A program made the position numbers and the translations under genes. The notes below the pieces were generated by a model. It had not been told where the DNA came from. It searched no databases and worked only from the letters and a program-made list of their open reading frames with translations. From IMG/VR virus record IMGVR_UViG_3300036859_000424: a stretch of DNA of 64,000 nt; one strand, written 5' to 3'. The stretch comes from a virus. Positions 1,090 to 34,150 of the stretch are shown piece by piece; position 1 is the first letter of the stretch, and every line of letters starts with the position of its first letter.

Positions 1090-1243
1090 TCCTGACGTCG
1101 TCACGCAGTGACGATGTTCACGGTCGGCACGACCCGGCCCCTAGCTGATCGGACATCACCCGATCATCCTGGGAGCGGGCCAACCCGCCCGCTGCGCGGC
1201 GCAAATATCGCCGCTGCGCAGCGACATCCTGAGAGGAGCCACG

Positions 1244-1852
1244 ATGGTCACATTCATCGGCGCCAACGACCGTGAGACCCTGGAGGGCGCGATCGAGGCG
1301 ATCGATCGCGAGCTACGATCCGAGAGGATCAAGGCGACCCGCGCGAAGCTGTCCAGGGACCGCTACGCCGCCCTGTACGCCGTCGCGAAGCTGTCCGGGC
1401 TGCGCGACTACTTCGAGGAGGCATCCAAGAACGGCCCGACCCCGACCCCGGCCCAAATCGCGGCGCTCCGGGTCACGATCCCGGACGACTCCCGCCGCCA
1501 ACTGCTAAAGGAGAAGCTGCACCAGTTGTGCATGGACGCCGGGGTCACCGTCTGGCTGGAAAACGACAACGCCGGCGGCGCCGAGCCGGATGCCTTCAAA
1601 TTCAAGATAAATACCGGCACCTGGTCACGGCCGTACGACACCGAAGCGGCGATGCTGGAGCAGGCGATCGATGACCTGACCCCGCCCGACCCGATGGAGG
1701 ACGGTGACGTCTATCGAGACGGGGGCTGGGAGGACCGGGACGGCTTCCCGGTCCCGACCACCACGGCGCCCGACTGTGACCGGACCTGTCTGTCCTGCCA
1801 GGGCGGCGATCACGGCGCCTGCGGGATGGGCTGTCATATCGAGGGGTTCTGA
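1244..1852 (+). CDS. hypothetical protein with Cys-rich C-terminus
   Basis: Preceded by CCTGAGAGGAG; ends CDRTCLSCQGGDHGACGMGCH. Confidence 0.8.
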   Translation: MVTFIGANDRETLEGAIEAIDRELRSERIKATRAKLSRDRYAALYAVAKLSGLRDYFEEASKNGPTPTPAQIAALRVTIPDDSRRQLLKEKLHQLCMDAGVTVWLENDNAGGAEPDAFKFKINTGTWSRPYDTEAAMLEQAIDDLTPPDPMEDGDVYRDGGWEDRDGFPVPTTTAPDCDRTCLSCQGGDHGACGMGCHIEGF

Positions 1853-2025
1853 TGGACGACCAGACCCGGCAGACCCTGCCGTGCGGCCACTGGACCCACC
1901 GCCTGCCCTTGTGGCACCTGCCGCCAGACGACTGCCTGACGAAGCGGCGACGCGATCGGGCGCAGCAGGTCGCCATCCAGGAAGCCTACGACGCCCAGCG
2001 GGGCGAACAGGAGGAGCGATCGTGA
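1852..2025 (+). CDS. small hypothetical protein (57 aa)
   Basis: TGATG coupling to upstream gene and GTGA coupling to downstream gene; not in ORF track. Confidence 0.6.
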   Translation: MDDQTRQTLPCGHWTHRLPLWHLPPDDCLTKRRRDRAQQVAIQEAYDAQRGEQEERS

Positions 2026-2225
2026 CCGGCCTGGGCAAGACCGTCGACCAGATGGATACCGACGACCTGCTGACGATCGCCCTGGCCTGGCTGGCCAACG
2101 TCCAGCGCCAGGATCGGGAGCGGTACCTGGACGCGATGCCGAACAACGTGCCGGGCCTGGGGGCGATGATCGAACGGCGCGACCAGATCCGCCGCGCCCA
2201 GGAACAAGCCGCCACCGTCACCTGA
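2022..2225 (+). CDS. small hypothetical protein
   Basis: GTG start after GAGGAG; stop lies inside CCTGAGAGGAG. Confidence 0.7.
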   Translation: MTGLGKTVDQMDTDDLLTIALAWLANVQRQDRERYLDAMPNNVPGLGAMIERRDQIRRAQEQAATVT

Positions 2226-2237
2226 GAGGAGCACCTG

Positions 2238-2537
2238 ATGGCCGACCGCTACCGCATCCACATCCTCCGGGTCGCCGACGAGACCTGGGAGATAGCCGAC
2301 GCCGGCGACGACCTGGAGTCGGCCCGCGCCCAGGTGGGCCGGATCGCTGACGACCTGCTGGACAAGGACGACGGGCTTGAAGCGCACCCGTCGGTCCCAA
2401 CGTTCATGGCCCGGCCCGGCGCCCGCCAGATCGGGATCTCTCGCGAGGACCCGCTGGCCCCGGAGATCGTGATCCGGCTGCTGGACACCACCCTCCACCA
2501 CTGCCCGACCTGCACCTGCGCCATGCTGGCGCGGTAG
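2238..2537 (+). CDS. hypothetical protein with C-terminal HHCPTCTC motif
   Basis: Preceded by CCTGAGAGGAG. Confidence 0.75.
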   Translation: MADRYRIHILRVADETWEIADAGDDLESARAQVGRIADDLLDKDDGLEAHPSVPTFMARPGARQIGISREDPLAPEIVIRLLDTTLHHCPTCTCAMLAR

Positions 2538-2613
2538 TCAGACCCGGCCCTGGCCGCCCGACATCACCGGACAGCCTGGGCCACCGGACCCCGCTGGTCG
2601 ACCTGAGAGGAGC

Positions 2614-2799
2614 ATGCCCGTGGAAGACGCTGCCGTGCGTCACCTGGAGCCGGTGGTCACCGTCCACTGCGCCCACTGCGAGGGGGCGCGCCCCCACACC
2701 CTGATTGACACCGTCGCCGGAGTCACCTTCCGTTGTACCTTCTGTGCAGTGACGACGACGCTGTACAGCCTGGAGGGGCAGCGTGGCCCGGAAAGCTAA
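2614..2799 (+). CDS. small zinc-ribbon protein
   Basis: CxxC pairs HCAHC and RCTFC; preceded by CCTGAGAGGAG. Confidence 0.7.
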   Translation: MPVEDAAVRHLEPVVTVHCAHCEGARPHTLIDTVAGVTFRCTFCAVTTTLYSLEGQRGPES

Positions 2800-3184
2800 G
2801 ACTGGCGCCGAACAGCTTGACCTGTTCGCGGCCGATCCAACCCCGATTGCGCTACGCCCGGAGGACCGGGCGCCGACCTGGGAAGAGATGCGCGAGCGTG
2901 GCCGCGTCCACCTACGGCAGATGACTGAACTGGCCCGCACCCGGGGCCAGCGGCGCCGTGAACGGATCGCGGCGGGCCTGGAGCAGCCGTGGACGCCGCC
3001 GACGTTCTGGATCAAGGACCGGCCCAAACGTCAACCGCCGAAAACCGCCGAAAATTCGCTAACGGCGATGAATCCCGGGGAAACCCGGGCAATTCCGGGC
3101 AATTCCGGGGACCCCCCACAGCCGGCCCGACTGCTCGCCGTTGACACCAAACCTGACACCCGGGTACGCTGGTGGCAGGGCTGA
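2783..3184 (+). CDS. hypothetical protein
   Basis: Overlapping ORF, plausible N-terminus MARKAKTGAEQLDLF. Confidence 0.6.
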   Translation: MARKAKTGAEQLDLFAADPTPIALRPEDRAPTWEEMRERGRVHLRQMTELARTRGQRRRERIAAGLEQPWTPPTFWIKDRPKRQPPKTAENSLTAMNPGETRAIPGNSGDPPQPARLLAVDTKPDTRVRWWQG

Positions 3185-3227
3185 CATCACCAGTTCGACC
3201 GTGAGTCGCTGAGAGGAGCAAGACACG

Positions 3228-3479
3228 ATGGCGACGACACCCCCCAGCGGGGCGCCGGTCAGTCCGGCTGCCACCCTGCACGACCACCGGACGGCGCTGA
3301 TGGCGCTGGCCGGCTTCTCCCGCAAGCTTGCCGAGAGCTTCGGGTCCCCGGTTGGCCGGGGCGATCAAGAGCGGTTCGAGATGGCGTTGCGACACGTTGC
3401 CGAGACCCGCGCCGCGTACGATGCAGCCGTCAACCTGATGATCCTGGACCAGGCCGGCAGATCTGACCGGAGCAACTGA
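3228..3479 (+). CDS. hypothetical protein
   Basis: Preceded by GCTGAGAGGAG; TGATG coupling to next gene. Confidence 0.7.
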   Translation: MATTPPSGAPVSPAATLHDHRTALMALAGFSRKLAESFGSPVGRGDQERFEMALRHVAETRAAYDAAVNLMILDQAGRSDRSN

Positions 3480-4036
3480 TGCTCGGCAACGGCGTCGGCA
3501 CGATGGGCCTGTTCCGAGACCGGCCCGACGTCGCCATCGAATACTTCAGCTACAGCGTATGGGACTGGGACGGCATCCAGTACCACTGGGACGTGACCGC
3601 CGCCCAGAAGCTGGCCAATCAGGCGATACGCGCGCAGAGCTGGGGTCGGTTCTCGGTTGAGGATACGTCGCAGTTGTACGCGATGCTGCTGGACGGGGCC
3701 GCTGAAGTCGACCCGGCGTACGCGCTGTCCCCGGAGATCAACCTGACCCTGCCGCTGATCGCGGTCCCGCTACCGTTCCCGAAGCTACCGGACGGCCGGC
3801 GCCAGCACGTCTTGATCGACGGCTGGCACCGGGTCTACCGCGCCCAGCATGAACAGATCCCGGAGCTGGTCCTGTTCCTGTTGAACGAGGCCGAGGAGCA
3901 GGCTGTGCGGCTGCGTCCGTCGACCCCCGATCTTGTCACCCAGGTGATGGGTATCCGGGCCGAACGGAAGCGCGCCGGCTGGCCCTGGCCGTACGACGCC
4001 CCACCACGGGATGGAGGTGCAGCCCAACCAACCTAG
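3479..4036 (+). CDS. stand-alone ParB/Srx-like domain protein
   Basis: PLIAVP...VLIDGWHRVYRA matches the ParB N-terminal DGxHR motif. Confidence 0.65.
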   Translation: MLGNGVGTMGLFRDRPDVAIEYFSYSVWDWDGIQYHWDVTAAQKLANQAIRAQSWGRFSVEDTSQLYAMLLDGAAEVDPAYALSPEINLTLPLIAVPLPFPKLPDGRRQHVLIDGWHRVYRAQHEQIPELVLFLLNEAEEQAVRLRPSTPDLVTQVMGIRAERKRAGWPWPYDAPPRDGGAAQPT

Positions 4037-4152
4037 GCACGCACACCTGCGCGTTTTTCCACATACCCTGAGAGGAACCCCGGCATGTGTGACAACCCCC
4101 CTGTCACCGGCGCCCGGGGCCGGGTCCTGCTGTTGACAGTAGGCCCGGTCTG

Positions 4153-4503
4153 ATGGTGCGCCCATACGACGGTAACGACACCCTCCAGGACGGCCCTTGT
4201 GGCCAGTTCGACCCCCTGGTCGACCCGGCAATTGTCGGTGTCGCCGGCCCTGATCGACCCGACCTGCGCTGCTGCTGTGGCTGGGAGTGGATGTTCCACG
4301 CCAGCGACGCGGACGGCCCGACCCCGGAACAACGGGGCGCCCTGGTGCAGGACCCGGCGACCAGTACTGCCCACGCGATGATCCTGGTCGCGCTGGCTGC
4401 CGACACCGGCCTAGACGACCTGATCGCGATGCTGGCCCAGGACAACCGGCTACTGGCGATCGGACGACACGCCGACGACGCCGCCCTGGAGGACCCTGCC
4501 TGA
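4153..4503 (+). CDS. hypothetical protein
   Basis: Coupled by TGATG to a 22-codon upstream ORF (4085-4153) and to the next gene. Confidence 0.65.
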   Translation: MVRPYDGNDTLQDGPCGQFDPLVDPAIVGVAGPDRPDLRCCCGWEWMFHASDADGPTPEQRGALVQDPATSTAHAMILVALAADTGLDDLIAMLAQDNRLLAIGRHADDAALEDPA

Positions 4504-4868
4504 TGAAAGTCATCGTCTGCGTCGGCACCCAGCCGCCCCAGATCTGCGAGATCGAACGGCTGACCCCGACCAACCGCATCCGCTGGGCCGACGGCCAGGG
4601 GCCGATCGGCAAGGTCTGGCACAGCGACAAACCCAAGCCGGTCTACACCAATCAGACCTACTTCCAGGTCTCCGACACCATCTTCCCCTACAGCGACGAC
4701 AACCTGTTGAAGCTGATTGAGCGCCAGGCGACCTGGGCGCTGGCTGAACAGGCCATGCGCGACGCCCGACTGGCGTACGAGACAACCCGGGCAGACGCCA
4801 ACAGCCGGGCCGGGGTCGGCAAGCTGGAGCTGAAGGCGATCCAGGAGGCGACGAACCGTGGGACGTGA
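4503..4868 (+). CDS. hypothetical protein
   Basis: TGATG coupling; starts MKVIVCVGTQ. Confidence 0.7.
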   Translation: MKVIVCVGTQPPQICEIERLTPTNRIRWADGQGPIGKVWHSDKPKPVYTNQTYFQVSDTIFPYSDDNLLKLIERQATWALAEQAMRDARLAYETTRADANSRAGVGKLELKAIQEATNRGT

Positions 4869-5505
4869 CGCACGCATAAAGCGCCAGCGGCGGGCGGCCC
4901 AGGACGTCCCCGGGCCGCCGGCTGACATCGTCCGGGACGTCCCGCCCCACGTCAGGCAGACACTGGCCCAGTCGATGCGCCAGTGGTTCGACCCCAGCCC
5001 GACACCACCGCCCTGGACGACTTTTGAGATTAGCGTTGAAAACCGGTACGCGGGAGGGCGGACCCGGGAGCAGGCGATCGATGAGCTGGTCGAGAAGACC
5101 GGCTTGTCGCGCGAGCACTGCGAGCAGGCGATTGCCGACCTGGCGGCCGAGACGATCTACGTCAACAGCCGGTACCAGGTCAACGTCAGGCGGCAGGACC
5201 CGGCTGAAGGGTCGGGCGCGCCGCCGCTGGTGCACCTGTCGATCAAGTGCATCTGGAACGGCAAGCGGCCCCCCGGCCCGGAGCGGTTCCGGGACTTCCA
5301 ACGGATCAAAAATGAGCTGGTCGGGCCGGAGTGCGAGGCGACTGAAGTCTACCCCGCGGAGTCTCGGCTCGTAGACACCAGTAACCAGTTCCACCTCTGG
5401 GTCTTCGATGACCCCACCTTCCGGATCCCGTGGGGCTTCGGGTCGCGGCTGGTGACCGACATCCAGATCCTGGACAGCGTCCAGCAGCCGTTTGAGGGGG
5501 GCTGA
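4858..5505 (+). CDS. conserved phage protein (HLSI...FQRIKNELVG...YP...HLW family; DUF7694-like from memory)
   Basis: Motif LVHLSIK...RDFQRIKNELVGPECEATEVYPAESRLVDTSNQFHLW. Confidence 0.65.
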   Translation: MGRDARIKRQRRAAQDVPGPPADIVRDVPPHVRQTLAQSMRQWFDPSPTPPPWTTFEISVENRYAGGRTREQAIDELVEKTGLSREHCEQAIADLAAETIYVNSRYQVNVRRQDPAEGSGAPPLVHLSIKCIWNGKRPPGPERFRDFQRIKNELVGPECEATEVYPAESRLVDTSNQFHLWVFDDPTFRIPWGFGSRLVTDIQILDSVQQPFEGG

Positions 5506-5507
5506 CC

Positions 5508-5825
5508 GTGGCGATAGTGCCCGAACTGACCGACGACGAACGGCCGGTCTTCATTGCCTGGGCGCGGTCGCGCACGCAGTTCATCCCGCGCATGGCGGAC
5601 GGTCAGGACATCGGCCGTAGGTCAATCCAGCGAGAATCGCTGGACCTGATCGGTGGAACGATCACCATCCGCCGGGTGGTCCAGTCGGTGGACGAGCTGG
5701 TCGACCGCTGGCGATCCCTGGGGCGCCCCGACGCCCCGATCCATAACCGACGGGCGCCCGGCCTGCCCATCTATCGTGGGGGCACCGGGCGGATCGGCCA
5801 GGGAAGGAGGCGACGCGAGACCTGA
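5508..5825 (+). CDS. hypothetical protein
   Basis: Coupled ORF. Confidence 0.65.
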   Translation: MAIVPELTDDERPVFIAWARSRTQFIPRMADGQDIGRRSIQRESLDLIGGTITIRRVVQSVDELVDRWRSLGRPDAPIHNRRAPGLPIYRGGTGRIGQGRRRRET

Positions 5826-6397
5826 TGACCACGAAAGCCCAGTTCAAGCGCGTCAAGGAGAGCCTGGAGCGCGAGCGGCTACGCCTGAGAGGCGAGGCGC
5901 TGACGCTGGAGAAGCGGCAGCGCGAGATGCGACAGGAGCGCGTCGACGCGATCGCCTATCTGCGGCTGCTGTGCGGCCAGTACGGCGACAACGACTGGCC
6001 CGACACCATGCCACTGGTCGAGATCCTCCAGGTCCACCTGGCCCACCGTCTCCAGGTCGACCTGTCCAGGATCAGCCGGCGGCTGGCCCAGCTTCAAGCT
6101 GAAGTCGAACGGCTCCGGCAGGCCCCGGAGCAGTCGCAGGACCCCCTGCGGGGCGCGACCATCGCAAGCGACGTCCCGGACACGGTCCGGGACGTCCCCC
6201 GCCCGACGCCGGCGTCGGGCGGTCCCGCCCCCCGCGACGTCCCGGGCCACCAGACCCTGCCGGTCGTATCTACGGGCGGGAAGTGGACCGGGACCTGTAG
6301 CTGCGGCTGGCGCCAGTTCGGCCTGCCCAACAAGGAGGCGGCCCAACTGGCCGGCGACGTCCACGCGTCCCGGATGCTGCCGCTGACCGCGACATGA
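5825..6397 (+). CDS. coiled-coil protein with C-terminal CxCGW zinc motif
   Basis: Helical charged N-half; HQT...WTGTCSCGW...H. Confidence 0.7.
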   Translation: MTTKAQFKRVKESLERERLRLRGEALTLEKRQREMRQERVDAIAYLRLLCGQYGDNDWPDTMPLVEILQVHLAHRLQVDLSRISRRLAQLQAEVERLRQAPEQSQDPLRGATIASDVPDTVRDVPRPTPASGGPAPRDVPGHQTLPVVSTGGKWTGTCSCGWRQFGLPNKEAAQLAGDVHASRMLPLTAT

Positions 6398-7357: not shown

Positions 7358-7689
7358 CCGACGACATGAACCGCCCGGTACAGCTTCTCATTTGAGCGTC
7401 GGGCGTCATAACCTGGCGGTCGCCGGGTCAGACCCTGATCAAAGGCTTCCCGGGCCTGCCGGTGTTCAGCGTGAACACCGAGCACCAGGCCCAGCAAGCC
7501 CAGGTCACCTTCGGCCAGTACGGCTGCGTCCAGGGGGTGTACCTGTACAAGTGGACCGAGTTTCCGACCGGCGACGTTGGCGCCCTGGGGATGGTCACCA
7601 GGACCCTGCGGGACTGGTGGGCAACGAACTACGGGCACGAACCGGACGCGCCGATCGTGTACCCGCCCCGCCGACGGCGGCGGCCCTGA
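7354..7689 (+). pseudogene. phage protein interrupted by an in-frame TGA at 7393-7395
   Basis: ATGA-coupled start with GGAGG RBS; frame reads MTDDMNRPVQLLI*ASGVITWR...LPVFSVNTE to a stop inside CCTGAGAGGAG. Confidence 0.6.
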
Positions 7690-9743: not shown

Positions 9744-9872
9744 CCCGTTCAGGCCGTTATGCTGGTCGATAATTGTGAACTAGCTCACATCGCGAGCCGA
9801 AACGCGGTACTATGCGCGGAGGGTTGGAGTGATCTGCGCGTAGCGCCGACGAACGGGCACGAAGGAGCGACT

Positions 9873-10613
9873 GTGCAACAGACCAGCAGACAGAACGGTG
9901 CAGTGATGGGGCGAGACGACGATCTCGACAGAACCCCGGAGCGGGCGCTGGTCCCGAGCGACCAGCAGGCGCTGGCCCGGCTACCCGAGCGAGACCGGGC
10001 GCTGCTGACGCCCGACGTCGTCGCCCGCTGGACTGGGGGCCTGGCGCCCGACGACTACCTGGACCCAGTGGAGATCGTCCGCCTTGAGCGCGGACGGCAG
10101 CGCACCTTACAGACGATCCGCGAAGGTGCTGAGCTGACGGACCTGGAGTTCAAGCTGCTGCGCTACTTCCAGCGCAACGAACGGCGCACCCTGACCTACC
10201 AGCAGATGGCCCACCACCTGTGGGGGACGTCGGCCCGGCCGATCACGGCCTACATGCTGCGGTCCCAGATGGGGTACGCCAGCCCGTACATCCGCCACAT
10301 CTGGGTCCTGGTCAGCAGCATCCGCCAAAAGCTGGAGATCGATCCACTAAGGCCACAACATCTTGCAACAATAAGAGGAGTTGGCTACCGCTGGTACAAC
10401 GATCCCCCAAGTCTGGACGACGGCGAGAACTACCAGAAGCGCCTGGCCGAATCTGAGACCATGCGCGCCCAGGTGCGCTATGACTTCGGATACAGCGTTG
10501 AGGACGATGTGCGGGTCCTTGAACGCCCCCGATCGGGGCCGATGCTGGGTCCGAACCACCCCGCCTACGAAGCGGACGTCACGGAACGGCGATCGGTCAG
10601 ACACGATCCCTGA
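9873..10613 (+). CDS. OmpR/PhoB-type winged-helix DNA-binding protein lacking a receiver domain
   Basis: ELTDLEFKLL...LTYQQMAHHLWG...VLVSSIRQKLEIDPLRPQHLATIRGVGYRW; GTG start after GAAGGAG. Confidence 0.85.
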   Translation: MQQTSRQNGAVMGRDDDLDRTPERALVPSDQQALARLPERDRALLTPDVVARWTGGLAPDDYLDPVEIVRLERGRQRTLQTIREGAELTDLEFKLLRYFQRNERRTLTYQQMAHHLWGTSARPITAYMLRSQMGYASPYIRHIWVLVSSIRQKLEIDPLRPQHLATIRGVGYRWYNDPPSLDDGENYQKRLAESETMRAQVRYDFGYSVEDDVRVLERPRSGPMLGPNHPAYEADVTERRSVRHDP

Positions 10614-10621: not shown

Positions 10622-11065
10622 ATGCCGGAGATCACCCTGACCCTCACCGACGACGAGATGGCCCAACTAGAGCGGGTGGCTGCGTCCCGCAACCAGGACC
10701 CGATCGGCGCGATCCTGTACGTGATCCGCCGCGACATCTTCCGCGTGCCGGCCGGCCAGCGGCGATCGCTTGAACGGAGCACCCCCCAGTACAAACGGAG
10801 AGGCGCCGATCGCCTGGCCCGCCAGGTCAGCCTGGTCGCCCACATCAAACAGCACGGGCACCCAGAGAGCAAGGCCCACGCCCAGGTGCTGGCCGACAAG
10901 TTTGGGGTCTCAGCGCGGACGATCTACCGCGACCTGGAGCTGGCCCAGGAGGCGATCGACCGCGAAGCCGGGGACCCGGCCGTCCTGCCGGCCCCGGGGC
11001 CGCGCCCCAGGATGGGCCGCCCACCGAAGGTCCCCCGCTACCGCCACCAGGCGGCCACCGGGTAA
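10622..11065 (+). CDS. ribbon-helix-helix plus HTH_11-like transcription regulator
   Basis: N-terminal EITLTLTDDEMAQLERVA; C-terminal LADKFGVSARTIYRDL. Confidence 0.75.
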   Translation: MPEITLTLTDDEMAQLERVAASRNQDPIGAILYVIRRDIFRVPAGQRRSLERSTPQYKRRGADRLARQVSLVAHIKQHGHPESKAHAQVLADKFGVSARTIYRDLELAQEAIDREAGDPAVLPAPGPRPRMGRPPKVPRYRHQAATG

Positions 11066-11136: not shown

Positions 11137-11766
11137 ATGGCTGATCAGGCAACCACAGTGTCGAGCAGCGGCGGGTCGGGCGTCAAGGCGAACCGACGGC
11201 GCTGGCCGACCGACACCCGGAGCAAGCCCCGCCGGCTGCTGTCGTATCGCCAGTCCTGGGTCCGGGGCCAGCGCAGAGACACCGGCGCCCCATTCTGGAT
11301 CGTGCCCGGCGACTCCGGGTCCCACTACACCGACCTGCTGGCCTGTAGCTGCGAGCGCTGGCAGTTCCTGCGGCGCTCGCCGGAGCAGGCGTGCACCCAC
11401 ATCATGGCGGTCCGCCTGTGGTACGCCGCCTTTAGAGACCACAAGCTGACCGACGACCCTGGCGAGCCCCACCGCAAGCTGCGGCCGGGCGACCGCGAGC
11501 ATTTTGAAGCCCAGGACCTGGTGCTGTCGGCGATCGCCGACAGCCTGCTGGCCCAGTTCGAGATCGGGACGTCCCAGCCGCTGGAGTGGGACACCCCCGG
11601 GACGACGTCGCTTGCGATGTTCGCGTCCAGCATGGACGACGACGGGCTGCGCCAGCAGTTGGCGCACGACAACGCGACCTACGCCAGGACCCGTCACCTG
11701 GCGATCGTGGACGATGATGGAACAACCCCTAGGGCCGTTCTCAACCCCCCTGATGAAAGGCCATAG
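11137..11766 (+). CDS. SWIM zinc-finger protein
   Basis: HYT...CSCERW...ACTHIMAV (CxC...CxH); preceded by CCTGAGAGGAG. Confidence 0.75.
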   Translation: MADQATTVSSSGGSGVKANRRRWPTDTRSKPRRLLSYRQSWVRGQRRDTGAPFWIVPGDSGSHYTDLLACSCERWQFLRRSPEQACTHIMAVRLWYAAFRDHKLTDDPGEPHRKLRPGDREHFEAQDLVLSAIADSLLAQFEIGTSQPLEWDTPGTTSLAMFASSMDDDGLRQQLAHDNATYARTRHLAIVDDDGTTPRAVLNPPDERP

Positions 11767-13800: not shown

Positions 13801-14306
13801 TGGGACGATGTCGACAGCGTCGATATTCCCGCCCCGGAGGGGACAGCCCGTACTACCGCTGCGCCTGGTGCCTGCGCGAGAGTCACCATCCCGTCGACAT
13901 CATCAACCGCTACTGCCCCTGCTGCGGAACCGACGACCGGACCCTGCCGAAGACCTGCGAGCACCGGACCGGGTCGACCTTGCTGGATCTGTTCGGTGAG
14001 GGCGTCCGGTATGTCAGGCGCGACCCCTGGGCCGACGGCAACTACCTTGAGCTGTTGGACGTCGCCGGCTTCATGGGGCCGTTCGCCTGGATTCACAGCC
14101 CGCTGGAATGGGACGGGGTCGTGCCGACCGCGACCATCGCAAGCGACGTCCCCGACGACGTGGCGATGGCCGCCCGGGAAACACCACTGTGGCAGCTACC
14201 CCGGGGTGGCTGGGAAGCGTACACCGGGCCGACGGTCGATCAGCGAAGGTTCGGAACCTACATCGACCCCCGGGGCCGGGTCTGGCTGGAGAAGCCGGAG
14301 ACATGA
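13800..14306 (+). CDS. zinc-finger hypothetical protein
   Basis: YRCAWC...RYCPCC in the N-terminus. Confidence 0.7.
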   Translation: MGRCRQRRYSRPGGDSPYYRCAWCLRESHHPVDIINRYCPCCGTDDRTLPKTCEHRTGSTLLDLFGEGVRYVRRDPWADGNYLELLDVAGFMGPFAWIHSPLEWDGVVPTATIASDVPDDVAMAARETPLWQLPRGGWEAYTGPTVDQRRFGTYIDPRGRVWLEKPET

Positions 14307-15436: not shown

Positions 15437-16111
15437 TTAGGCACCACCGAACCGGGGTGGGGAGCTGTAGGTGCCCAGGAGAACGCCCGCCAGGCGGGCC
15501 AGGCGTGCATCAAGGTAGGTCCCGTCGCCCAGGCGGTAGCGTGACTCAACGCCGCCTGTCTCCGGGACTTCGAGATACCAGGCGACATGGGTCGAGCCCT
15601 GGTAGTCGATGACGACCGGGTCACGGTGAAGCGGGTCCCGGTCAGGATCGAAGATCGCCAGGGCGCCCACAGCCACGTACGGCGGCAGGCCGCCGCCGGT
15701 GACCAGCGTGGCCATGATGCCCTGGTGCTGCCCGTTGATCGACAGCGGCACCGGGATCAACTCCCCCGTTTCAAGGTGTCCGGCCCCGGTAGCCGTCGCG
15801 AACAGCCGGACGACCGGTACCAACAGGACTCCTTCGGCAACCAGGTCGCCGGCCGGCCCGCCCGGTAGGACGTACGGCATCAGAAAAGACCTGGGGACCT
15901 TGAAGGCCCGCGCCAACAGCTCGATGGTACGGATCTTCGGAAAGTCCACGATACCCCTGACCAGCAGGGACAGCGTGGAATGCGAGACGCCGGATTCGTC
16001 GGCCGCCTTGGACAGCGACCACCCCCGCTGCTCCATCAGCCACTTCACCCGCGCCCCAACGCTGGAATGCGTCGGTATCGACGTTGTTTCGGTCGGAACG
16101 GAAACGACCAT
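15437..16111 (-). CDS. CI-like immunity repressor: XRE HTH plus degenerate S24 (LexA-type) C-terminal domain
   Basis: VGARVKWLMEQRGWSLSKAADESGVSHSTLSLLVRG HTH; S24-like VTGGGLPP...GALAIFDP...VVIDYQGSTHVAW; divergent from a Cro-like gene. Confidence 0.85.
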   Translation of the reverse strand: MVVSVPTETTSIPTHSSVGARVKWLMEQRGWSLSKAADESGVSHSTLSLLVRGIVDFPKIRTIELLARAFKVPRSFLMPYVLPGGPAGDLVAEGVLLVPVVRLFATATGAGHLETGELIPVPLSINGQHQGIMATLVTGGGLPPYVAVGALAIFDPDRDPLHRDPVVIDYQGSTHVAWYLEVPETGGVESRYRLGDGTYLDARLARLAGVLLGTYSSPPRFGGA

Positions 16112-16201
16112 TGAGCCTCCTCACAAAGAGGAGGATACCACCCCGTAGGAGACGACACCGTGTGTAGACCTCCCCAATTTGGGTGGTTTTCGGCGACGGG
16201 T

Positions 16202-16230
16202 TTGACATGGTTCACAACCGGAGGTACATT
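16202..16230 (+). promoter_or_regulatory. sigma70/SigA-type rightward promoter (PR-like)
   Basis: TTGACA (16202-16207), 17-nt spacer, TACATT (16225-16230). Confidence 0.8.
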
Positions 16231-16289: not shown

Positions 16290-16688
16290 ATGCGCACGTC
16301 CAGCAGCGCTGCGCTGCGGGCACCCGCCGCGCCCGACGACGGCCGCGACCTGATCTCGGCGCGTCCCCAGCACGACCTGATCGCCGGCCTGATGGCGATC
16401 GCCCTGCGCGAGGGCATCCCGCGCTACGCCCTGTGCGAGAAGATCGGGATCGATCACGCGATGCTCTCGCGGGCCAGTCGATCGGACACCCGTAAGGAGC
16501 GGCTGGGGATCGTCACCTGCGCCAAGATCGTCACGGCGTACCCGGAGCTATCGGACGCCGCCGCCAACTATCTGGCCGACGGCTTCGGCTGGCCGATCAT
16601 CCGCGCCCTGGCCGTGCTGGGCCAGGCAGCCGAAGCGGTCGAGGACGTCGGCGCAGCCGATGATGGCGCACCGCAGGTGGACCAGTGA
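16290..16688 (+). CDS. Cro-like HTH protein
   Basis: IPRYALCEKIGIDHAMLSR HTH; divergent from CI. Confidence 0.7.
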   Translation: MRTSSSAALRAPAAPDDGRDLISARPQHDLIAGLMAIALREGIPRYALCEKIGIDHAMLSRASRSDTRKERLGIVTCAKIVTAYPELSDAAANYLADGFGWPIIRALAVLGQAAEAVEDVGAADDGAPQVDQ

Positions 16689-20368: not shown

Positions 20369-20455
20369 CGGGACGTCCCACGTGCTACACAAGCAGCACT
20401 GTGAGACATCTCACAAGCCCGACTCAGGGTCCAGTGTAGCACGTGGGACGTCCCG
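20369..20455. repeat. perfect 22-bp inverted repeat enclosing a TGTGA-N6-TCACA box
   Basis: CGGGACGTCCCACGTGCTACAC (20369-20390) and its reverse complement (20434-20455). Confidence 0.95.
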
Positions 20456-20471: not shown

Positions 20472-20702
20472 GTGAAGAAGCGACACCGGAAGGCGATCGA
20501 CAAGGGCCGTCGGCACGCCAGTAATCTGGCCCCACCCGTCAGCATGGTCGTCAGGCGTCATCTGGACATGGTCGTACCCGTCGTGGGTGCGCCGTCAGCG
20601 TATCTCGGCGAGACCGTCTACCTCCCGTCCCCCGATCGCCCGGACTTGATCGTCAACGACCGTGCCAAAGACGCCGCGCTCGCCGCCCGTAGGGGGATCT
20701 GA
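20472..20702 (+). CDS. small basic hypothetical protein
   Basis: GTG start after GGAAGGG; TGATG coupling to the initiator. Confidence 0.6.
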   Translation: MKKRHRKAIDKGRRHASNLAPPVSMVVRRHLDMVVPVVGAPSAYLGETVYLPSPDRPDLIVNDRAKDAALAARRGI

Positions 20703-21739
20703 TGGTGGTCGCACATGAGCTGCCGATCGAATACACCCCCCGCGAGACCGGACAGCCGGGACTGCGCATGGTTGAGCCGTTCGTGATCCTGCGCAAGGCG
20801 ATGCTGTACGACCTGACGCTGACCCCCCAGCTCAAGATCCTGTACCTGGTCATCGCCGACCAGGCGTGGCGCGATGAGACCGGGACCTGCCGCCTGTCCC
20901 ACGGCGAGCTAGCCCAGCTAGTCGGCCGCGAGACCCGGACCGTCCGGGCGCTGGTCAAGCCCCTGGTCGACTGCGGGTTACTGGGCCAGAAGCGGACCGG
21001 TCCGACCCAGGCGAAGGCGTACTGGCCGATCGATCCGGGCGAACAGGTTGGACACCGGCCAAAAAATGACGGTGTCTCGGATCGGGACGGTGGACACCGG
21101 CCAAAAAATGACGCGACACCGTCAGAAAATGGACGGTCACACCGGCCAAAAAATGACGGTTATCTTAACCGGAGACCGGATCCGGAGACTCCGGAGATAA
21201 AAAGACCGGCGGTTGCTTCGCAACCGGCCGGTCCCGGCGGCGCGACAGAAGGTGAATTTTCTTCGCAAGAAGTTTCGACATCAAAGCCGCCGAAGCCACG
21301 GCCGTCTCCGTCGGCGATCGCCCTGTCGCCGGGTGCCCAGGCCGTCATGGACCACTACGCCGTGGAGTGGGGGGCGGCGCACCCGACCCTGAATCCGACC
21401 CAGGTCCGGCTGCTGGAGGAAGCGGTCGCCGAGATCGGCGCCGACGAGATCATGGCGTCGGTGACCTACCTGGCCGGCGACGGGGTGCGCGGGATCGACA
21501 AGGCCAGGCGCGGTGCCCTGAATCGGCTGGGCAAGAATCCGATCAGGGCTGGCCAGCTTGCCGCCGCCACCCGGGGCGACGATCGTCCGCCGTCTCGCTT
21601 CCTGGAGACCCGGGACCGTCAGGCTGGACGCGGCCGCTTCTACGGGGCCTCGCCGGTCGAACGCCCGTACGACGGCACCCGCCACGGTGGGGGGACCCGC
21701 GCCCAGAAGCAGAACATCCGCGAGAACAAGAGGTTCTAG
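20702..21739 (+). CDS. phage replication initiator (lambda O-like layout, N-terminal winged HTH)
   Basis: LKILYLVI...LSHGELAQLVGRETRTVRALVKPLVDCGLL; internal iterons; followed by a DnaC-like loader. Confidence 0.85.
   Translation: MVVAHELPIEYTPRETGQPGLRMVEPFVILRKAMLYDLTLTPQLKILYLVIADQAWRDETGTCRLSHGELAQLVGRETRTVRALVKPLVDCGLLGQKRTGPTQAKAYWPIDPGEQVGHRPKNDGVSDRDGGHRPKNDATPSENGRSHRPKNDGYLNRRPDPETPEIKRPAVASQPAGPGGATEGEFSSQEVSTSKPPKPRPSPSAIALSPGAQAVMDHYAVEWGAAHPTLNPTQVRLLEEAVAEIGADEIMASVTYLAGDGVRGIDKARRGALNRLGKNPIRAGQLAAATRGDDRPPSRFLETRDRQAGRGRFYGASPVERPYDGTRHGGGTRAQKQNIRENKRF
21052..21158 (+). repeat. iterons inside the initiator gene (probable replication origin)
   Basis: ACACCGGCCAAAAAATGACG exact at 21052, 21094 and 21139; degenerate copy at 21116. 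Confidence 0.9.
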
Positions 21740-28404: not shown

Positions 28405-28487
28405 TGGACGTCTGCCTCGCGATCATCTCACTGGCCGCCCTGCTGGCCGCCCTGGCCTGGCTGGTGACATCCACCGTAGCCCAATGA
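28404..28487 (+). CDS. 27-aa single-helix membrane peptide
   Basis: TGATG and ATGA coupled; MDVCLAIISLAALLAALAWLVTSTVAQ. Confidence 0.55.
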   Translation: MDVCLAIISLAALLAALAWLVTSTVAQ

Positions 28488-28876
28488 CCGACCAGCACGC
28501 CTCCGAGATCAACGGGCGGTCGACGGAATACCAGCAGTTCCTGGAGACCTGGGCGCGCCACTGCGGGGCGCCGTTCAGCGTGTTCCAGGGCCACCTGAAC
28601 TGCCTGATCTACGCCGAATTGCAGATGGCGGCCCAGGACGTCATCGACCACGTCCAGGATCTCCAGAAGCGGACCCACCCGAACCGCAAGGCGCTGGACC
28701 GGCTGCTGACCGACCTGCTGAACCATCTCGAAGGACACGACTGTTTTGAAGAAGGGTGCCTGGCGCTGATGGGCGTCGATGACCTGATCTGTGCCGGCAA
28801 GGCCAGCCTGGCCGGCCGGATCCGGCAGGCCCGCCGGGTCCTGGAATTTGACGCCGTTCCACCTGCATCGACCTGA
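28484..28876 (+). CDS. hypothetical protein
   Basis: Stop lies inside CCTGAGAGGAG. Confidence 0.7.
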   Translation: MTDQHASEINGRSTEYQQFLETWARHCGAPFSVFQGHLNCLIYAELQMAAQDVIDHVQDLQKRTHPNRKALDRLLTDLLNHLEGHDCFEEGCLALMGVDDLICAGKASLAGRIRQARRVLEFDAVPPAST

Positions 28877-28887
28877 GAGGAGAGCCG

Positions 28888-29295
28888 ATGGTGGCCCGCG
28901 TGCCGCTGCGCCCGGTCCAGACCGATGGTGTCGCCTTCGGGCCGATGCTGCGGCGGCTGCGGACCAGGTCCGGGCTGTCCCAGAACCAACTGGCGAGGCG
29001 GTCAGGGGTCGATCCGGCCTACGTCAATCGCCTGGAACGGGCGGTGGCCGCGACCGGGCAGGCGTCGGTCTCGCTGCCCAGCCGGAAGGTCGTGACGGCG
29101 CTGTGGGAAGCACTGGAGGCGGCTGTGGAAGATCGTGAACGGCTGCTGGTGGCGGCCGGCCACTGCCCGGAGACGATCCTGCTGGCCGGCGGCTGGGACG
29201 CCTACATCGGATCGGTCAGGCGCCAGGTCGTGGCCGCCCTGGACGCCCTGGACGTCGCGCTGACGGTCCCGCCCGACACCACCTGGGAGAGATGA
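28888..29295 (+). CDS. XRE-family HTH regulator
   Basis: FGPMLRRLRTRSGLSQNQLARRSGVDPAYVNRLERA. Confidence 0.9.
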   Translation: MVARVPLRPVQTDGVAFGPMLRRLRTRSGLSQNQLARRSGVDPAYVNRLERAVAATGQASVSLPSRKVVTALWEALEAAVEDRERLLVAAGHCPETILLAGGWDAYIGSVRRQVVAALDALDVALTVPPDTTWER

Positions 29296-29296
29296 C

Positions 29297-29686
29297 GTGA
29301 CCCCAGCAGAACGACTGCGACATGAGCTGACGCGCCAGCAGGCGGCGAACGACGACCTGGCGGCCCGCCTCGCGATCATGACCGACAACAACCGGCGACT
29401 GGGGACCCTGATCGCCAAGCTGGTGTTGTCGGACGGGGCCGAAGATCGGGCGCTGCGGCTGTCCGGGCCGCATGACCTGCCGATCTTCCACCTGACCACG
29501 GAGCATTTCTGCGGCCCGACCCGGGACGACCCCTGCGACGACGTCGTCCAGTACCACCGGGGGAACGCCGACGACTGCGCGCCCTGCCGCGAGGCGATCG
29601 AGAGCCGCCAGCAGCAGGCGGTCCAGCGCCACAACCACCTGCTGCCCGGCCGGCCGTACGGGATGGCTGCGGAGGATCGGAACTGA
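29297..29686 (+). CDS. coiled-coil protein with C-terminal Cys/His motif
   Basis: YHRG...DCAPCREA. Confidence 0.7.
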   Translation: MTPAERLRHELTRQQAANDDLAARLAIMTDNNRRLGTLIAKLVLSDGAEDRALRLSGPHDLPIFHLTTEHFCGPTRDDPCDDVVQYHRGNADDCAPCREAIESRQQQAVQRHNHLLPGRPYGMAAEDRN

Positions 29687-29961
29687 TGCTGAACACCGGG
29701 ACCCATCGCGTCACGATCAAGCGGGCCAACGGTGGCAGAGACACCAACGGGCTGCACCTGTGCGACAACTGCGTCACGATCGTCCTCCGGGCGTTCCCGT
29801 CGCCCGACCATCTGGTCGTGATCTCGCCGACGCCCTGGGGCGGGCCGTGCGACCTGGACCGCTACACCCAGGCCCTGTCGGCGCTGCTGGGGGTCGACCC
29901 GACACTTTTGAACGTCGACCAGGAACCGGCGATCCCCCAGGACCCGGGCATCATCCCCTGA
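29686..29961 (+). CDS. hypothetical protein
   Basis: TGATG coupling on both sides; HLCDNC. Confidence 0.7.
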   Translation: MLNTGTHRVTIKRANGGRDTNGLHLCDNCVTIVLRAFPSPDHLVVISPTPWGGPCDLDRYTQALSALLGVDPTLLNVDQEPAIPQDPGIIP

Positions 29962-30146
29962 TGACCGCCGAGATCGACGCGCTGATCGTCAGCCTGAACG
30001 TGATCACGCTGCACCCGGGCGACCGGTACGAGGTTGTGCTGCGCCTGCGGGCGGACGCCCCGGAGGCGATCCAGGCGCTGCTGGCGGCGTACCGATCGGG
30101 GCTACCGGTCCACCTGGTGGCCGTGACTGTGGAGGAAGAGACCTGA
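29961..30146 (+). CDS. small hypothetical protein
   Basis: TGATG coupling on both sides. Confidence 0.7.
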   Translation: MTAEIDALIVSLNVITLHPGDRYEVVLRLRADAPEAIQALLAAYRSGLPVHLVAVTVEEET

Positions 30147-30484
30147 TGGCAAAGAAGTCTCGACAGAAGGTGGTCGCGGAGACCGACGGGGCCACCGGGC
30201 CACCCAGGATGATCGTGGCCAGGGGTCTGGTCATGTTCCAGATCATGCTGGGCGACGAGACGATGGGGGCGGCGATCGAAGTCCACACCAACCCGGCCGG
30301 CAAGTTCAAGGGTCGGGAGAAAGAGCTGACGGTGGCGCTGCACCCGGAGATGGTCGCGGTCCTGGAGAAGCTGAAGACCCTGACCGGCTGCACCTACGAC
30401 GTCGCATCACTGACCCAGACCCTGATCGATCGGCCGGCCAGGCCGCCGATCGTCGCCAGCCCGGGTCGGCCCGGCCATGCCTGA
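30146..30484 (+). CDS. hypothetical protein
   Basis: Coupled ORF. Confidence 0.7.
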   Translation: MAKKSRQKVVAETDGATGPPRMIVARGLVMFQIMLGDETMGAAIEVHTNPAGKFKGREKELTVALHPEMVAVLEKLKTLTGCTYDVASLTQTLIDRPARPPIVASPGRPGHA

Positions 30485-30803
30485 CCACGTCGCCCGCTGC
30501 ACGACGTGCTACCCGGAGATCGCCCCCAGTGGCGGACGGACCGGACCCCACCACGTCGGCATCCGATTCAACCCCCTGACCGAAGGGATCAGATGGCAGT
30601 TCCTGTTGGACGGGAACGAAGTCAAGCACGTACTGGAAGCAGTCGCCGGTCCGAAGGGCTGGATCTACCACCACCAGGACCGGCCGGGCGGGGGCGGCAT
30701 GCACCCCTGCGAGAACTGCGGCAAGGCTGTTTGCGCCAGGCTGCTGTTCGGCCGGGTCCAGATCTTCCGCGACGACGTCGAGATCATAGCCCCGCACGCC
30801 TGA
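30477..30803 (+). CDS. Cys-containing hypothetical protein
   Basis: RCTTC, HPCENC; stop inside CCTGAGAGGGA. Confidence 0.7.
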   Translation: MPDHVARCTTCYPEIAPSGGRTGPHHVGIRFNPLTEGIRWQFLLDGNEVKHVLEAVAGPKGWIYHHQDRPGGGGMHPCENCGKAVCARLLFGRVQIFRDDVEIIAPHA

Positions 30804-30815
30804 GAGGGAAGGACG

Positions 30816-31616
30816 ATGCACGCCGTCCCCCGAACCAAGACCTACAGCTACCCCTGCCTGGCACCAGGCTGCGAGACGATCGTCACATTGGCCTGGGACG
30901 ATCGTCATCTCTGTAAGGCGTGCTACCAGCGGGTCAAGGACGCAATGGCGGGCGCCAGAGACAGTCTGATGGCGCTAATGCCAGCGGCTCATGATGAAGT
31001 CGCGCGCTGGCTGAACACGCCCTGGGTGCCGCCGTCGCGCTACGCCATCATTGATGAAGAGTTCTCCGTCCTGGACCCGAAGGACGTTGCCCGCGAGATG
31101 GCCGACGATCTGGCCGATGAACACCGGGCGACCGGCCTGGCGTTCAAGCTGGATCGCCCGCCGATGTTCAAGGGCGAGTCGGAGCGCGCGCCGTGGCGGT
31201 TCGCTGACGGACCGGCTCTGTCGGCCTGGCGCGACCACCTGGCGTCGCACCTGGCTCCGGCGCTGCGGACGGCCCTGGAGACGTTCGACGGCGGCCACGT
31301 CGGGGATGAGATCAAAGCGGCACTGCTGGGCGGCCAGGGGTACACCCGCCATGACACCTACGAAGCGCTGGACGACACCGACGCACTGTCGGGGCTCTCG
31401 CCCGACGCGCTGATGTACATCGACATCCGGTTCGCGCCAACCAGCATCTACCTGGACCACGACAACGGCGAGCGGGTCAAGCCGCACTGGTGGCAGTACC
31501 CGGTGCTGCCGGCGGAGATCATGGCGATCCTGGATGCCGTCCAAGCGCACGTTACGGGGCGAGAACGCGCCGAAGAAGCCAGGGCGGCGCAGCAGCGCGA
31601 AACCGACGACACGTGA
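30816..31616 (+). CDS. hypothetical protein with N-terminal zinc finger
   Basis: YPCLAPGC...HLCKAC. Confidence 0.8.
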   Translation: MHAVPRTKTYSYPCLAPGCETIVTLAWDDRHLCKACYQRVKDAMAGARDSLMALMPAAHDEVARWLNTPWVPPSRYAIIDEEFSVLDPKDVAREMADDLADEHRATGLAFKLDRPPMFKGESERAPWRFADGPALSAWRDHLASHLAPALRTALETFDGGHVGDEIKAALLGGQGYTRHDTYEALDDTDALSGLSPDALMYIDIRFAPTSIYLDHDNGERVKPHWWQYPVLPAEIMAILDAVQAHVTGRERAEEARAAQQRETDDT

Positions 31617-31629
31617 CCAGGTATAGATG

Positions 31630-31681
31630 CTGGTCGTGCTAATACTGATTAGCACGACCAGTCGAACTAAGACGCTTAGTT
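31630..31681. promoter_or_regulatory. AT-rich double palindrome upstream of an RHH gene
   Basis: CTGGTCGTGCTAAT-ACTG-ATTAGCACGACCAG (14 bp perfect), then AACTAAG-ACG-CTTAGTT. Confidence 0.75.
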
Positions 31682-31699
31682 GGTAAGAAGATCCCGACC

Positions 31700-31888
31700 G
31701 TGCCAGCAGGGCACCTGGAAGGAAAGACCGTGGAGATCACTGTCACCCTGCCTGACGAGATCATTGAACGCCTGAACGCCGTGACGGCGATCAACGACAT
31801 CAGCGTCGATGCTGCCGTCACCGACGCGCTGCTGCCCTGGTTAGAGGACCAGGAGGAGCGCCGGGTTGGCCCGGTCAACCTGGGCTAA
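31700..31888 (+). CDS. ribbon-helix-helix (CopG-like) protein
   Basis: VEITVTLPDEIIERLNAVTAINDISVDAAVTDALLPWL. Confidence 0.7.
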   Translation: MPAGHLEGKTVEITVTLPDEIIERLNAVTAINDISVDAAVTDALLPWLEDQEERRVGPVNLG

Positions 31889-31900
31889 GGGGAGAGACCG

Positions 31901-32143
31901 ATGCCAGTCCTACACATTCACGTCGAGGGCGAGGGCGTCTGGCCCGACCTGGCGGACAAGCCGCCGGAGTCCGCCGTCAAGCTGTCGATCGCCGCGCTGC
32001 CAGCCGGCATGCTGTCCGGTGCGCCCAGCGTCATGATCCGGATGGATCTCGGTGATGGGCGGGTCGTCGTGGGCGAGACCAGCTTGAAGCTGTTGTTGAC
32101 GGCCGCCGACGCCTTCCGCGCCCGCCACGGTGACCCCCGATGA
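31901..32143 (+). CDS. hypothetical protein
   Basis: RBS GGGAG; ATGA coupling. Confidence 0.75.
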   Translation: MPVLHIHVEGEGVWPDLADKPPESAVKLSIAALPAGMLSGAPSVMIRMDLGDGRVVVGETSLKLLLTAADAFRARHGDPR

Positions 32144-32484
32144 CGAACGCGATCCCGGTCCCCGACCCCGACCGCCTGGACCCTTCCGACGAAGCCGAAC
32201 TGCGCGGCTACCTGGAAGCCGGTGAACACGACCCGTCCGGGCTTAGCTGCGACTTCCGGCTGGCTGCCGCCCTGGCCGAGATCGACGCCCTGCGCGCCGA
32301 CGTGCGACGTGCCGATGAGCGGGCCGAGGCGGCCGACGCGATGGCGATGGAGACGATCACGTTCGCGTCGACCGCCGTCGACCGCCTGCACACCCGGTTC
32401 CTGCGACTACTAGACCGAACGCTCGCCGAACGCGACGACGCCCGCCGTTGGGCGATGCGGCTGTTTGAACGGGCGGTCCCGTGA
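32140..32484 (+). CDS. coiled-coil hypothetical protein
   Basis: RLAAALAEIDALRA... Confidence 0.75.
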   Translation: MTNAIPVPDPDRLDPSDEAELRGYLEAGEHDPSGLSCDFRLAAALAEIDALRADVRRADERAEAADAMAMETITFASTAVDRLHTRFLRLLDRTLAERDDARRWAMRLFERAVP

Positions 32485-32738
32485 TCGTCCACCTGCGTTC
32501 AGAGATGCACGGGGTCCCGATCCCGCCGGGCCTGCCGCCCCAGGTCAGCATCATCGGCAACACCCCGGCGGAATTCGAGAGCTTCATGGCGATGGCGCTG
32601 GCCTACCTGCGCAGCAAGTACCGGAGCCTGACGTTCATCCGGGTCGAGACCGGCCTGCGCATCCAAAGCCAGATCCAGCCAGACCAGTACTGCCTGATCC
32701 ACATCACCTGGACCACTGACGACCCCCAGACGGGCTAG
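32481..32738 (+). CDS. hypothetical protein, last gene of the rightward arm
   Basis: GTGA coupling; stop overlaps the stop of the convergent gene. Confidence 0.7.
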   Translation: MIVHLRSEMHGVPIPPGLPPQVSIIGNTPAEFESFMAMALAYLRSKYRSLTFIRVETGLRIQSQIQPDQYCLIHITWTTDDPQTG

Positions 32739-33463
32739 CCGGTCGACCCCCGATGTCCGGACAGTACTGCCAGAAGTCGTCGCCAGAACGACGGACGTTG
32801 CAATTCTATTTCAAGCGCAGACACCCGATTCTCGGCGCGTCCACGCGCCTCCCGTTCGACTGCCAGTAGCTGGCGTAGCTCCTCCGTAAGCTGCTCCTGC
32901 GACGCTAGCGCCACCCGAAGTGACCCCACTTCCGCGTCCTTCACGCCCAGCAGCCGTTCACCCATCTCGACCTGGACGCGCAGCCCGCCGACCTGCTCGC
33001 GCAGCGCCCCGATCAGCTCCATCCGGGCGCTGGCCTGGCGGTCGACGTCGGCCAGCCGCCCCACCAGCGGCGCGATCAGGGCGTCGCGAATCTCCGGAAT
33101 CGTCAGCCGGGGCTCGCTGGACGGGCCTTCGTCCACTGCGACGTGCCGGACCGGCTCCGGTGCGTCCTGGACGGCCTCCGGGACGGCCTCCGGGACGTCC
33201 CCCGTGGGGGTATCGGCGCCCGGGGACGTCCCGGGCTGGGCGGTCGGCCTCGTCAGAAGGGGGTCGTCGGCCGGCAGGTAGAACACGTAGACCTCGCCCT
33301 GCGGCCGCTGTTCCGTGTCCCAGGTCCAGCCCGGCGGCAGGACCCACTGACCGGTCGCGTCGTTGAATCTTCGCTTGACAGTCGACCGCGATATCCCCAA
33401 CAGCCGGGCGAGCTCGGGGGTCGAAAGCTTGACAAGTGGTCTCGGATCATCCATGACCACCAT
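32735..33463 (-). CDS. HTH plus coiled-coil protein with C-terminal amphipathic helix
   Basis: LSTPELARLLGISRSTVKRR; long heptads; ends RPSFWRRLLAVL. Confidence 0.8.
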   Translation of the reverse strand: MVVMDDPRPLVKLSTPELARLLGISRSTVKRRFNDATGQWVLPPGWTWDTEQRPQGEVYVFYLPADDPLLTRPTAQPGTSPGADTPTGDVPEAVPEAVQDAPEPVRHVAVDEGPSSEPRLTIPEIRDALIAPLVGRLADVDRQASARMELIGALREQVGGLRVQVEMGERLLGVKDAEVGSLRVALASQEQLTEELRQLLAVEREARGRAENRVSALEIELQRPSFWRRLLAVLSGHRGSTG

Positions 33464-33467
33464 TTTA

Positions 33468-33526
33468 TGTGAGCTACCTCACAACGGGACGACCCGTGAC
33501 GTCACAAACGGGTCGTGGGACGTCCC
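33468..33526. promoter_or_regulatory. operator cluster: TGTGA-N6-TCACA, ACGACCCGT inverted repeat around GTGACGTCAC, and GGGACGTCCC
   Basis: Elements at 33468-33483, 33489-33516 and 33517-33526, directly upstream of ATG 33463. Confidence 0.75.
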
Positions 33527-33579
33527 CGACCACCCGATCCCCGGCGTAACGGGCGCCCATCACCCGGCGTGGGAGGATT

Positions 33580-34150
33580 GACGGGGTCCGATGCGACGTT
33601 ACGTCGAGAACCAGGCTGTCCGGTCGCGGGGGAGATCCTGACGCTGGCCAGGCGTCAAGGCGACGCACCGAACGCGGTACCCACTTGTGAAGGGGATCAC
33701 AGAGAAGGTGCGCCTAGGATACCCAGGATCGCAACCCAAAATCCACCCGGTACCACCGATCGGCGCTGTCGTCGGCCCGTAGGATGCGATAGCATCCACC
33801 GGCATTGGCTGGTGGCCGACCGGGGGGGGTCCGGATCGGCCACCAGTCACGCCACCCCCAGGTCCGGGGTCGTTCGCGGTCCCGGGCCTGGCCACCTCGC
33901 GGCGGTGCAGTGCGCGAGGTTCCGCACGTGGGGTAGCCCGGCCGGCCCACCCCTTTTGGCTCCGAGATGCAGTCACGAGCCGAGACACCAGGGGGCTGGA
34001 GAGGAATATAGCACCGGCACCCTGACGAAAAGCCCCGCCGAACCGCTACGACGCGGTTACTGACATTTCGGTCAGTATGCCGGCGCTCCCCCCGAGTCGA
34101 TAGGCTACACCAACCCCCCCAGATAGGACCCCACGGAAAACCGTAGGCCC
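33580..34150 (+). ncRNA. candidate long structured non-coding RNA (boundaries approximate)
   Basis: At least 9 adjacent stems with G-U pairs on the plus strand and a UUCG loop; no credible ORF. Confidence 0.35.

Follow-up and report, generated by a model that had tools for sequence, protein, structure and literature searches.

Which protein reads the palindrome TGTGA-N6-TCACA on the main control regions of a phage genome that encodes no CRP-family regulator? The question is raised by the virus record IMGVR_UViG_3300036859_000424, of which a stretch of 64,000 nucleotides (hereafter the window) was analysed. The full record is a complete virus genome of 86,416 bp with direct terminal repeats and about 68% G+C, assembled from soil metagenomes, in which the window occupies bases 14731-78730 on the reverse strand. 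A sequence-only reading of the window had noticed these boxes and left two alternatives, direct control by the host cAMP-CRP protein or binding by the phage CI repressor. The boxes are a true, non-random and conserved regulatory motif, and the evidence favours the second alternative, with boxes on both CI/cro promoters, a conserved recognition helix and a varied geometry relative to the promoters. We therefore regard the boxes, with fair confidence, as a dispersed operator set bound putatively by the phage's own CI/Cro-type pair. Where the sequence-only reading envisaged convergence of the phage CI on a CRP-type operator, the likeness of the boxes to the CRP/Rex consensus is most likely coincidental.

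The four perfect boxes listed by that reading, at 9774, 20400, 33468 and 33686 (boxes a, b, e and f, respectively), were all recovered, and the 86,416-bp genome holds no other perfect copy. The dinucleotide-shuffle null gives 0.02 expected copies, and none of 100 shuffles reaches four. When all 5+5 palindromes with spacers of 0-12 nt are ranked by over-representation in the genome, TGTGA/N6 comes second, after GGGACGTCCC. The class with one mismatch is represented in the window by a single site, 16201 (TTTGA..TCACA; box c), which had been described as near-perfect and lies over the Cro-side -35 TTGACA of a TTGACA-17-TACATT promoter. The two-mismatch class is not enriched (13 observed versus 18.7 expected in the genome) and includes two further sites described as near-perfect, 16110 (box d) and 1107. 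The latter was rejected as a box, since it aligns with a repeat family (6150, 11600, 14120) of which it is a degenerate copy. This repeat of about 30 nt, GCGACCATCGCAAGCGACGTC(CC), has four copies, at 6150-6180, 14120-14152 and, as the reverse complement, 11600-11635 and 1105-1140; most of them fall within predicted genes, and either strand may carry the repeat. Among the exact half-sites (n=24), position +6 is G in 13, T in 7 and A in 3, and position -1 is C in 12 and T in 8, giving a half-site of the form (C/T)TGTGA(G/T). Every box is intergenic or at a gene start, in agreement with the sequence-only reading. In the case of box a, the open reading frame of the downstream regulator most likely starts at GTG 9873, behind GAAGGAG, and not at ATG 9759, and the box therefore precedes the gene and does not lie within it.

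Searches of INPHARED (megablast, blastn and tblastn), IMG/VR, GTDB genomes and JGI metagenome contigs returned no relatives, and the phage belongs to a high-GC soil phage clade without cultured or database relatives in the collections searched. Syntenic contigs were reached instead through exact-protein look-ups in large protein collections, starting from homologues of two window proteins, a CI-like protein with a helix-turn-helix (HTH) domain and an HTH/coiled-coil protein. Homologues of the CI-like protein (64, 60 and 55% identity) define loci L010, L015/16 and L012-14, and those of the HTH/coiled-coil protein loci L001, L008 and L009, L010 and L001 being carried by the same 57-kb contig. 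All share the order of the early region, which runs from a winged-helix regulator and an HTH_11 gene through the CI-like gene and the Cro side to Rad52-like, initiator, loader and methylase genes. The exception is the winged-helix regulator, which has orthologues in L010 and L012 and none at that site in L015. Sites with at most one mismatch are enriched in each relative too.

The intergenic DNA of the relatives that holds boxes a-d is only 59-65% identical, and all four boxes are kept in position. Box a is perfect in the window, in L010 (15312) and in L012 (15656), where it precedes the regulator start by 85-93 nt and a conserved TACyAT hexamer by 18-19 nt; all ten half-site columns are invariant, while N6 and the flanks vary (alignment A6). 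The orthologue of box b is perfect in L012 (7644), has one mismatch in L010 (7695) and is degenerate in L015 (alignment A5). Box c takes the form TTTGACAnnnnwTCACA over the Cro-side -35 in all four clades. Box d is perfect in L012 (9981), has one mismatch in L015 (9982) and shows in L010 (9987) the same two-mismatch form as in the window (alignment A4). Because relatives carry a perfect or one-mismatch box at this place, 16110 is a genuine member of the set despite its two mismatches; its earlier description as near-perfect, like that of 1107, was overstated, and its support comes from orthology of position. Boxes e and f are specific to this phage, as no box with two or fewer mismatches occurs upstream of the homologues in L001, L008 and L009. 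Conservation in related phages, on which the sequence-only reading had staked its proposal, is consequently found for a, b, c and d, whereas 33468 and 33686 are without counterpart in L001, L008 and L009.

In the spacer between the divergent repressor and Cro-side genes, dyads c and d overlap both promoters in the window, L010, L012 and L015. They are the only conserved dyads of this spacer, and none of the four phages repeats any other element of it at a second place. Boxes a, b, e and f are further copies on early promoters outside the switch, and a and b are conserved in relatives. The promoters referred to throughout are predicted from sequence. The features discussed are listed in Table 1.

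Table 1. Boxes, predicted promoter elements and genes discussed in the text (window coordinates).
Feature	Position	Strand	Context
Box a, perfect, TGTGAACTAGCTCACA	9774-9789		Before the operon of the winged-helix (Trans_reg_C) regulator
-10-like hexamer TACTAT (TACCAT in relatives)	9808-9813	+	Predicted; 18-19 nt downstream of box a; alignment A6
Winged-helix regulator gene	9873-10613	+	Trans_reg_C, Pfam PF00486, E 4.9e-13
CI-like HTH protein of the XRE family (224 aa), putative binder of the boxes	15437-16111	-	HTH_31/HTH_3; PHROG repressor families
Box d, two mismatches, TGTGAGGAGGCTCAAT (reverse complement)	16110-16125		At the CI-like gene, covering its Shine-Dalgarno sequence and start codon
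Box c, one mismatch, TTTGACATGGTTCACA	16201-16216		Contains Cro-side -35 TTGACA; -10 TACATT at 16225-16230
Cro-position HTH-like protein, 132 aa, possible second binder	16290-16688	+	First gene of the rightward operon
Inverted arms with GGGACGTCCC around box b	20370-20454 (arms 20370-20379, 20445-20454)		
Box b, perfect, TGTGAGACATCTCACA	20400-20415		Between the terminator hairpin of the Rad52-like gene and the replication operon
76-aa open reading frame	20472-20702	+	After box b
HTH_36 replication-initiator-like gene	20702-21739	+	After box b
HTH/coiled-coil protein gene, 242 aa	32735-33463	-	Promoter with box e and GGGACGTCCC-type sites at 33486 and 33517
Box e, perfect, TGTGAGCTACCTCACA	33468-33483		Adjoins -10 TAAAAT (33462-33467, minus strand) of the HTH/coiled-coil gene
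Box f, perfect, TGTGAAGGGGATCACA	33686-33701		6 nt after AACGCGGTAC, within the non-coding block of 0.75 kb

The placement of the boxes relative to these promoters is diverse. The distance from box centre to the start of the predicted -10 is 8.5, 16.5, 26.5 and 29.5 nt at four promoters. Placed by the predicted -10 elements, box a extends from about -46 to -31, box c from -36 to -21, box e from -29 to -14 and box d from about -4 to +12, and box b is centred at about -41.5. The variation of the box-to-(-10) distances argues against any single activator geometry and fits occlusion of the promoter by a repressor. TTGACA-17-TACATT (16202-16230), with its -35 inside box c, is the only consensus-grade promoter in the CI/cro region, and box d follows by 3-4 nt a conserved -10 that reads TATCCT here and TATGCT in relatives. 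At box b, the right inverted arm holds a -10-like TAGCAC (20437-20442), and this arm alone (TAGCAyGyGGG) is kept in all four clades. The 10-mer AACGCGGTAC is found exactly twice, at 9801-9810 and 33671-33680, each time beside a box, and its 9801 copy is part of the conserved -10 region downstream of box a; by inference only, the copy at 33671 would put box f over the start of a plus-strand transcript into the non-coding block. In this phage only, the Shine-Dalgarno sequence GAGGAGG of the CI-like gene can pair with an upstream CCTCCTC (CCTCCTCACAAAGAGGAGG, 16116-16134), and the resulting 7-bp hairpin could mask the ribosome-binding site.

In the mechanism that we infer, down to the identity of the binding protein, the preference for repression over activation and the promoters themselves, the CI-like repressor, probably as a dimer, would bind the boxes, and the Cro-position HTH protein would probably share the same sites. 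On the rightward early promoter, the weaker box c would overlie the -35 together with the spacer. The weaker box d would overlie the point at which transcription of the CI-like gene starts as well as its ribosome-binding site, so that this gene would repress itself. The perfect and presumably stronger boxes would occupy the promoters of the winged-helix regulator operon, the replication operon and the HTH/coiled-coil gene, with one more perfect box at a possible promoter in the non-coding block. Once occupied, the boxes would block RNA polymerase, and all these units would be shut together.

By elimination and by analogy with the lambdoid switch, the CI-like protein would be the best candidate binder. 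A PDB profile search assigns it a SinR-type HTH, and its recognition helix, GVSHS[AT]LSLL[VT]RG, is near-invariant (two variable positions) across five homologues at 55-64% identity; because this helix is conserved, one would expect the homologues to have an operator in common. Profile searching with the CI alignment added no homologues to these. The winged-helix regulator was set aside as the binder, as it is missing at its site in L015, where the switch boxes remain. The HTH/coiled-coil protein, whose -10 adjoins box e, was rejected too, its recognition helix reading RSTVKRRF here and RKTTHRMC in L001, yet the contig that carries L001 and L010 has the same boxes; the promoters of its homologues bear GGGACGTCC repeats in place of boxes. 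The Cro-position protein has no Pfam match, and its HTH-like motif IG[VI]DHAxLxR is conserved in the four clades. The HTH_11 protein (10622-11065), whose recognition helix LGVSxRT[IL]YRD is conserved in all four clades, is a minor candidate.

Several observations weigh against assigning the boxes to the CI-like protein. The homologues found all share both helix and box, so that their conservation suits a host factor equally well, and the Cro-position and HTH_11 proteins likewise have conserved recognition helices. Phage repressors 55-64% identical often differ in specificity, which makes an unchanged operator somewhat unexpected. In the AlphaFold model, the HTH domain of the CI-like protein is modelled confidently, and its C-terminal domain has predicted local distance difference test (pLDDT) values below 50. 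No S24 domain is detectable in this protein, and its dimeric state is an assumption; no integrase was found in the genome, and the role as a lysogenic repressor is accordingly putative.

It would be rather unlikely, though the likeliest of the alternatives, that a host global regulator owns the boxes, either a protein of the CRP/FNR family, its ligand being cAMP or a different one, or Rex, a repressor that senses NADH/NAD+, and that the CI-like protein binds something else. Phage early promoters, replication and the switch would then be tied to the energy state of the host. The box core is identical to the E. coli and mycobacterial Crp consensus (PMC4218801), and Streptomyces Rex operators share the core and are placed on the -35/spacer or immediately behind the start site, as the boxes are here (PMC5355995). 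The motif is also unchanged over four phage clades with diverged regulators, as would be expected from a conserved host binder, and such a protein, were the host to possess it, would bind the perfect 10/10 sites in vitro. No relatives that could point to the host were found in cultured-phage records, IMG/VR and GTDB genomes. The geometry, though, speaks against CRP, since most centre-to-(-10) distances at the predicted promoters are unlike class I or II sites (about -41.5 or -61.5); box b alone fits class II, and there the spacing of the L010 orthologue is 2 nt shorter. Against Rex, the boxes depart from the extended consensus TTGTGAA-N4-TTCACAA, with A at +6 in 3/24 half-sites and T at -1 in 8/24. 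Were both spacer dyads host-owned, moreover, the CI-like repressor would be left without a conserved or repeated site there, and natural CRP/Rex regulons rarely have four perfect sites with almost no intermediate ones.

Less probable still is that another phage protein owns the boxes, namely the HTH_11 protein, autoregulated from behind box a, or the Cro-position protein alone, the CI-like site being non-dyad or poorly conserved. Box a does precede the HTH_11-encoding operon in three clades, and the recognition helices of both proteins are conserved in all four. Nothing links these proteins specifically to the boxes, however; the two dyads over the divergent CI/cro promoters point to the pair encoded there, and L015 has the HTH_11 gene, yet no box before it. 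A similarly doubtful variant combines two of these readings, in that the phage would keep CI/Cro operators identical to the host CRP/Rex-type consensus, with host sensor and repressor competing or cooperating at them; if true, host cAMP or redox state would feed straight into the early/replication switch of an uncultured soil phage clade. That the boxes are promoter elements or chance palindromes with no dedicated binding protein is highly improbable. One half-site may also act as a weak -35, as with CTCACA, 18 nt ahead of TACTAT, at box a and with TTGACA in box c, but both halves are conserved as a dyad, the -35 would be a different half at different sites, box e adjoins a -10 and box d follows one. 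Chance is ruled out by the shuffle counts, the enrichment in relatives and the positional conservation. An operator set of the phage's own CI/Cro-type pair thus remains the favoured reading.

The wider layout of the genome is as follows. From 1 to about 32.7 kb of the window the genes run rightward, broken by the two leftward genes at 15437-16111 and 32735-33463; the latter is followed by a 0.75-kb non-coding block and then by lysis and structural genes on the minus strand. The absence of a CRP gene from the window, pointed out in the sequence-only reading, extends to the whole genome, which has no cNMP-binding domain and in which HTH_Crp_2 matches are only sub-threshold and of generic HTH character. 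No integrase, large serine recombinase, resolvase, S24 peptidase or ParA was detected in the whole genome, and one ParB_N protein is encoded at genome position 4656-4904. An Rfam search of the window gave no match. ARAGORN reports a 98-nt tRNA-Ala(GGC) at 38737-38834 (minus strand), within a 731-aa tail-fibre-like open reading frame, which is probably a false positive. The endolysin has a C39_2+GH25 architecture found mostly in virus-derived clusters, which pointed to no host taxon. Gordonia phage VanLee was considered as a related phage and set aside: it has an integrase cassette, and its genome announcement offers no link to the phage described here.

The family of the HTH/coiled-coil protein is small and unannotated, and only about eight representatives of it occur among 1.8 billion. 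Its members combine an HTH at the N terminus, the conserved module LPPGW..RxQGE..VPxDDPRL, a coiled coil and a tail with WWRR, and the gene is always placed where the late and early arms meet, following a long non-coding block. In this phage the gene is probably leaderless from ATG 33454, in agreement with the N-termini of the homologues. The GGGACGTCCC palindrome has 14 copies in the genome against 0.37 expected and is enriched in all relatives too; ten copies fall in the window (4934, 6189, 11566, 13099, 13139, 20370, 20445, 33192, 33223 and 33517) and four outside. Every relative has it next to the -10 of the HTH/coiled-coil gene, and a conserved pair 31 nt apart lies within that gene (33192/33223; 10211/10242 in L001, with one mismatch each). 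The palindrome probably serves a second regulator as its operator, and that regulator may be the HTH/coiled-coil protein. Its combination with the boxes at two promoters (20370/20445 around box b and 33486/33517 upstream of box e) suggests that a second regulator acts there.

The proposed switch is of a known kind, here in a phage clade not studied before. As in the lambdoid CI/Cro operators (OR/OL), the gene of an HTH repressor diverges from an early operon and dyads lie over both promoters. Extra copies on distant early promoters recall dispersed phage repressor regulons such as that of the cluster A mycobacteriophage repressor, whose sites are spread over the genome (PMC9283540, PMC6550527), and site quality is graded as in phage repressor operators, being weaker in the switch and perfect elsewhere. 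The differences are equally clear. Lambdoid OR/OL comprise three adjacent sites, whereas the two switch sites here are about 90 bp apart; the half-site is the CRP/Rex core, and neither an S24 self-cleavage domain nor an integrase was detected in the genome, unlike in lambdoid-type systems. Cluster A stoperators are asymmetric and bound by a monomer, whereas the boxes here are perfect dyads. With CRP/FNR sites the boxes share the 5+6+5 consensus TGTGA-N6-TCACA (PMC4218801), but they occur in a phage genome without a CRP-family gene, follow no fixed class I/II geometry and cover the phage's own switch promoters. With the Streptomyces Rex operators (ROP; TTGTGAANNNNTTCACAA) they share the TGTGA/TCACA core and a repressor-type placement (PMC5355995), and differ in the extended positions, (C/T)TGTGA(G/T) here, and in having no link to respiratory genes. 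If the host has a CRP or Rex of this specificity, cross-talk with host physiology would be almost unavoidable at the perfect sites. The analysis supplies a concrete regulatory map of operators, predicted promoters and candidate binders for a high-GC soil phage clade, and it illustrates that control by host CRP does not necessarily follow from the presence of a textbook 'CRP box' in a phage.

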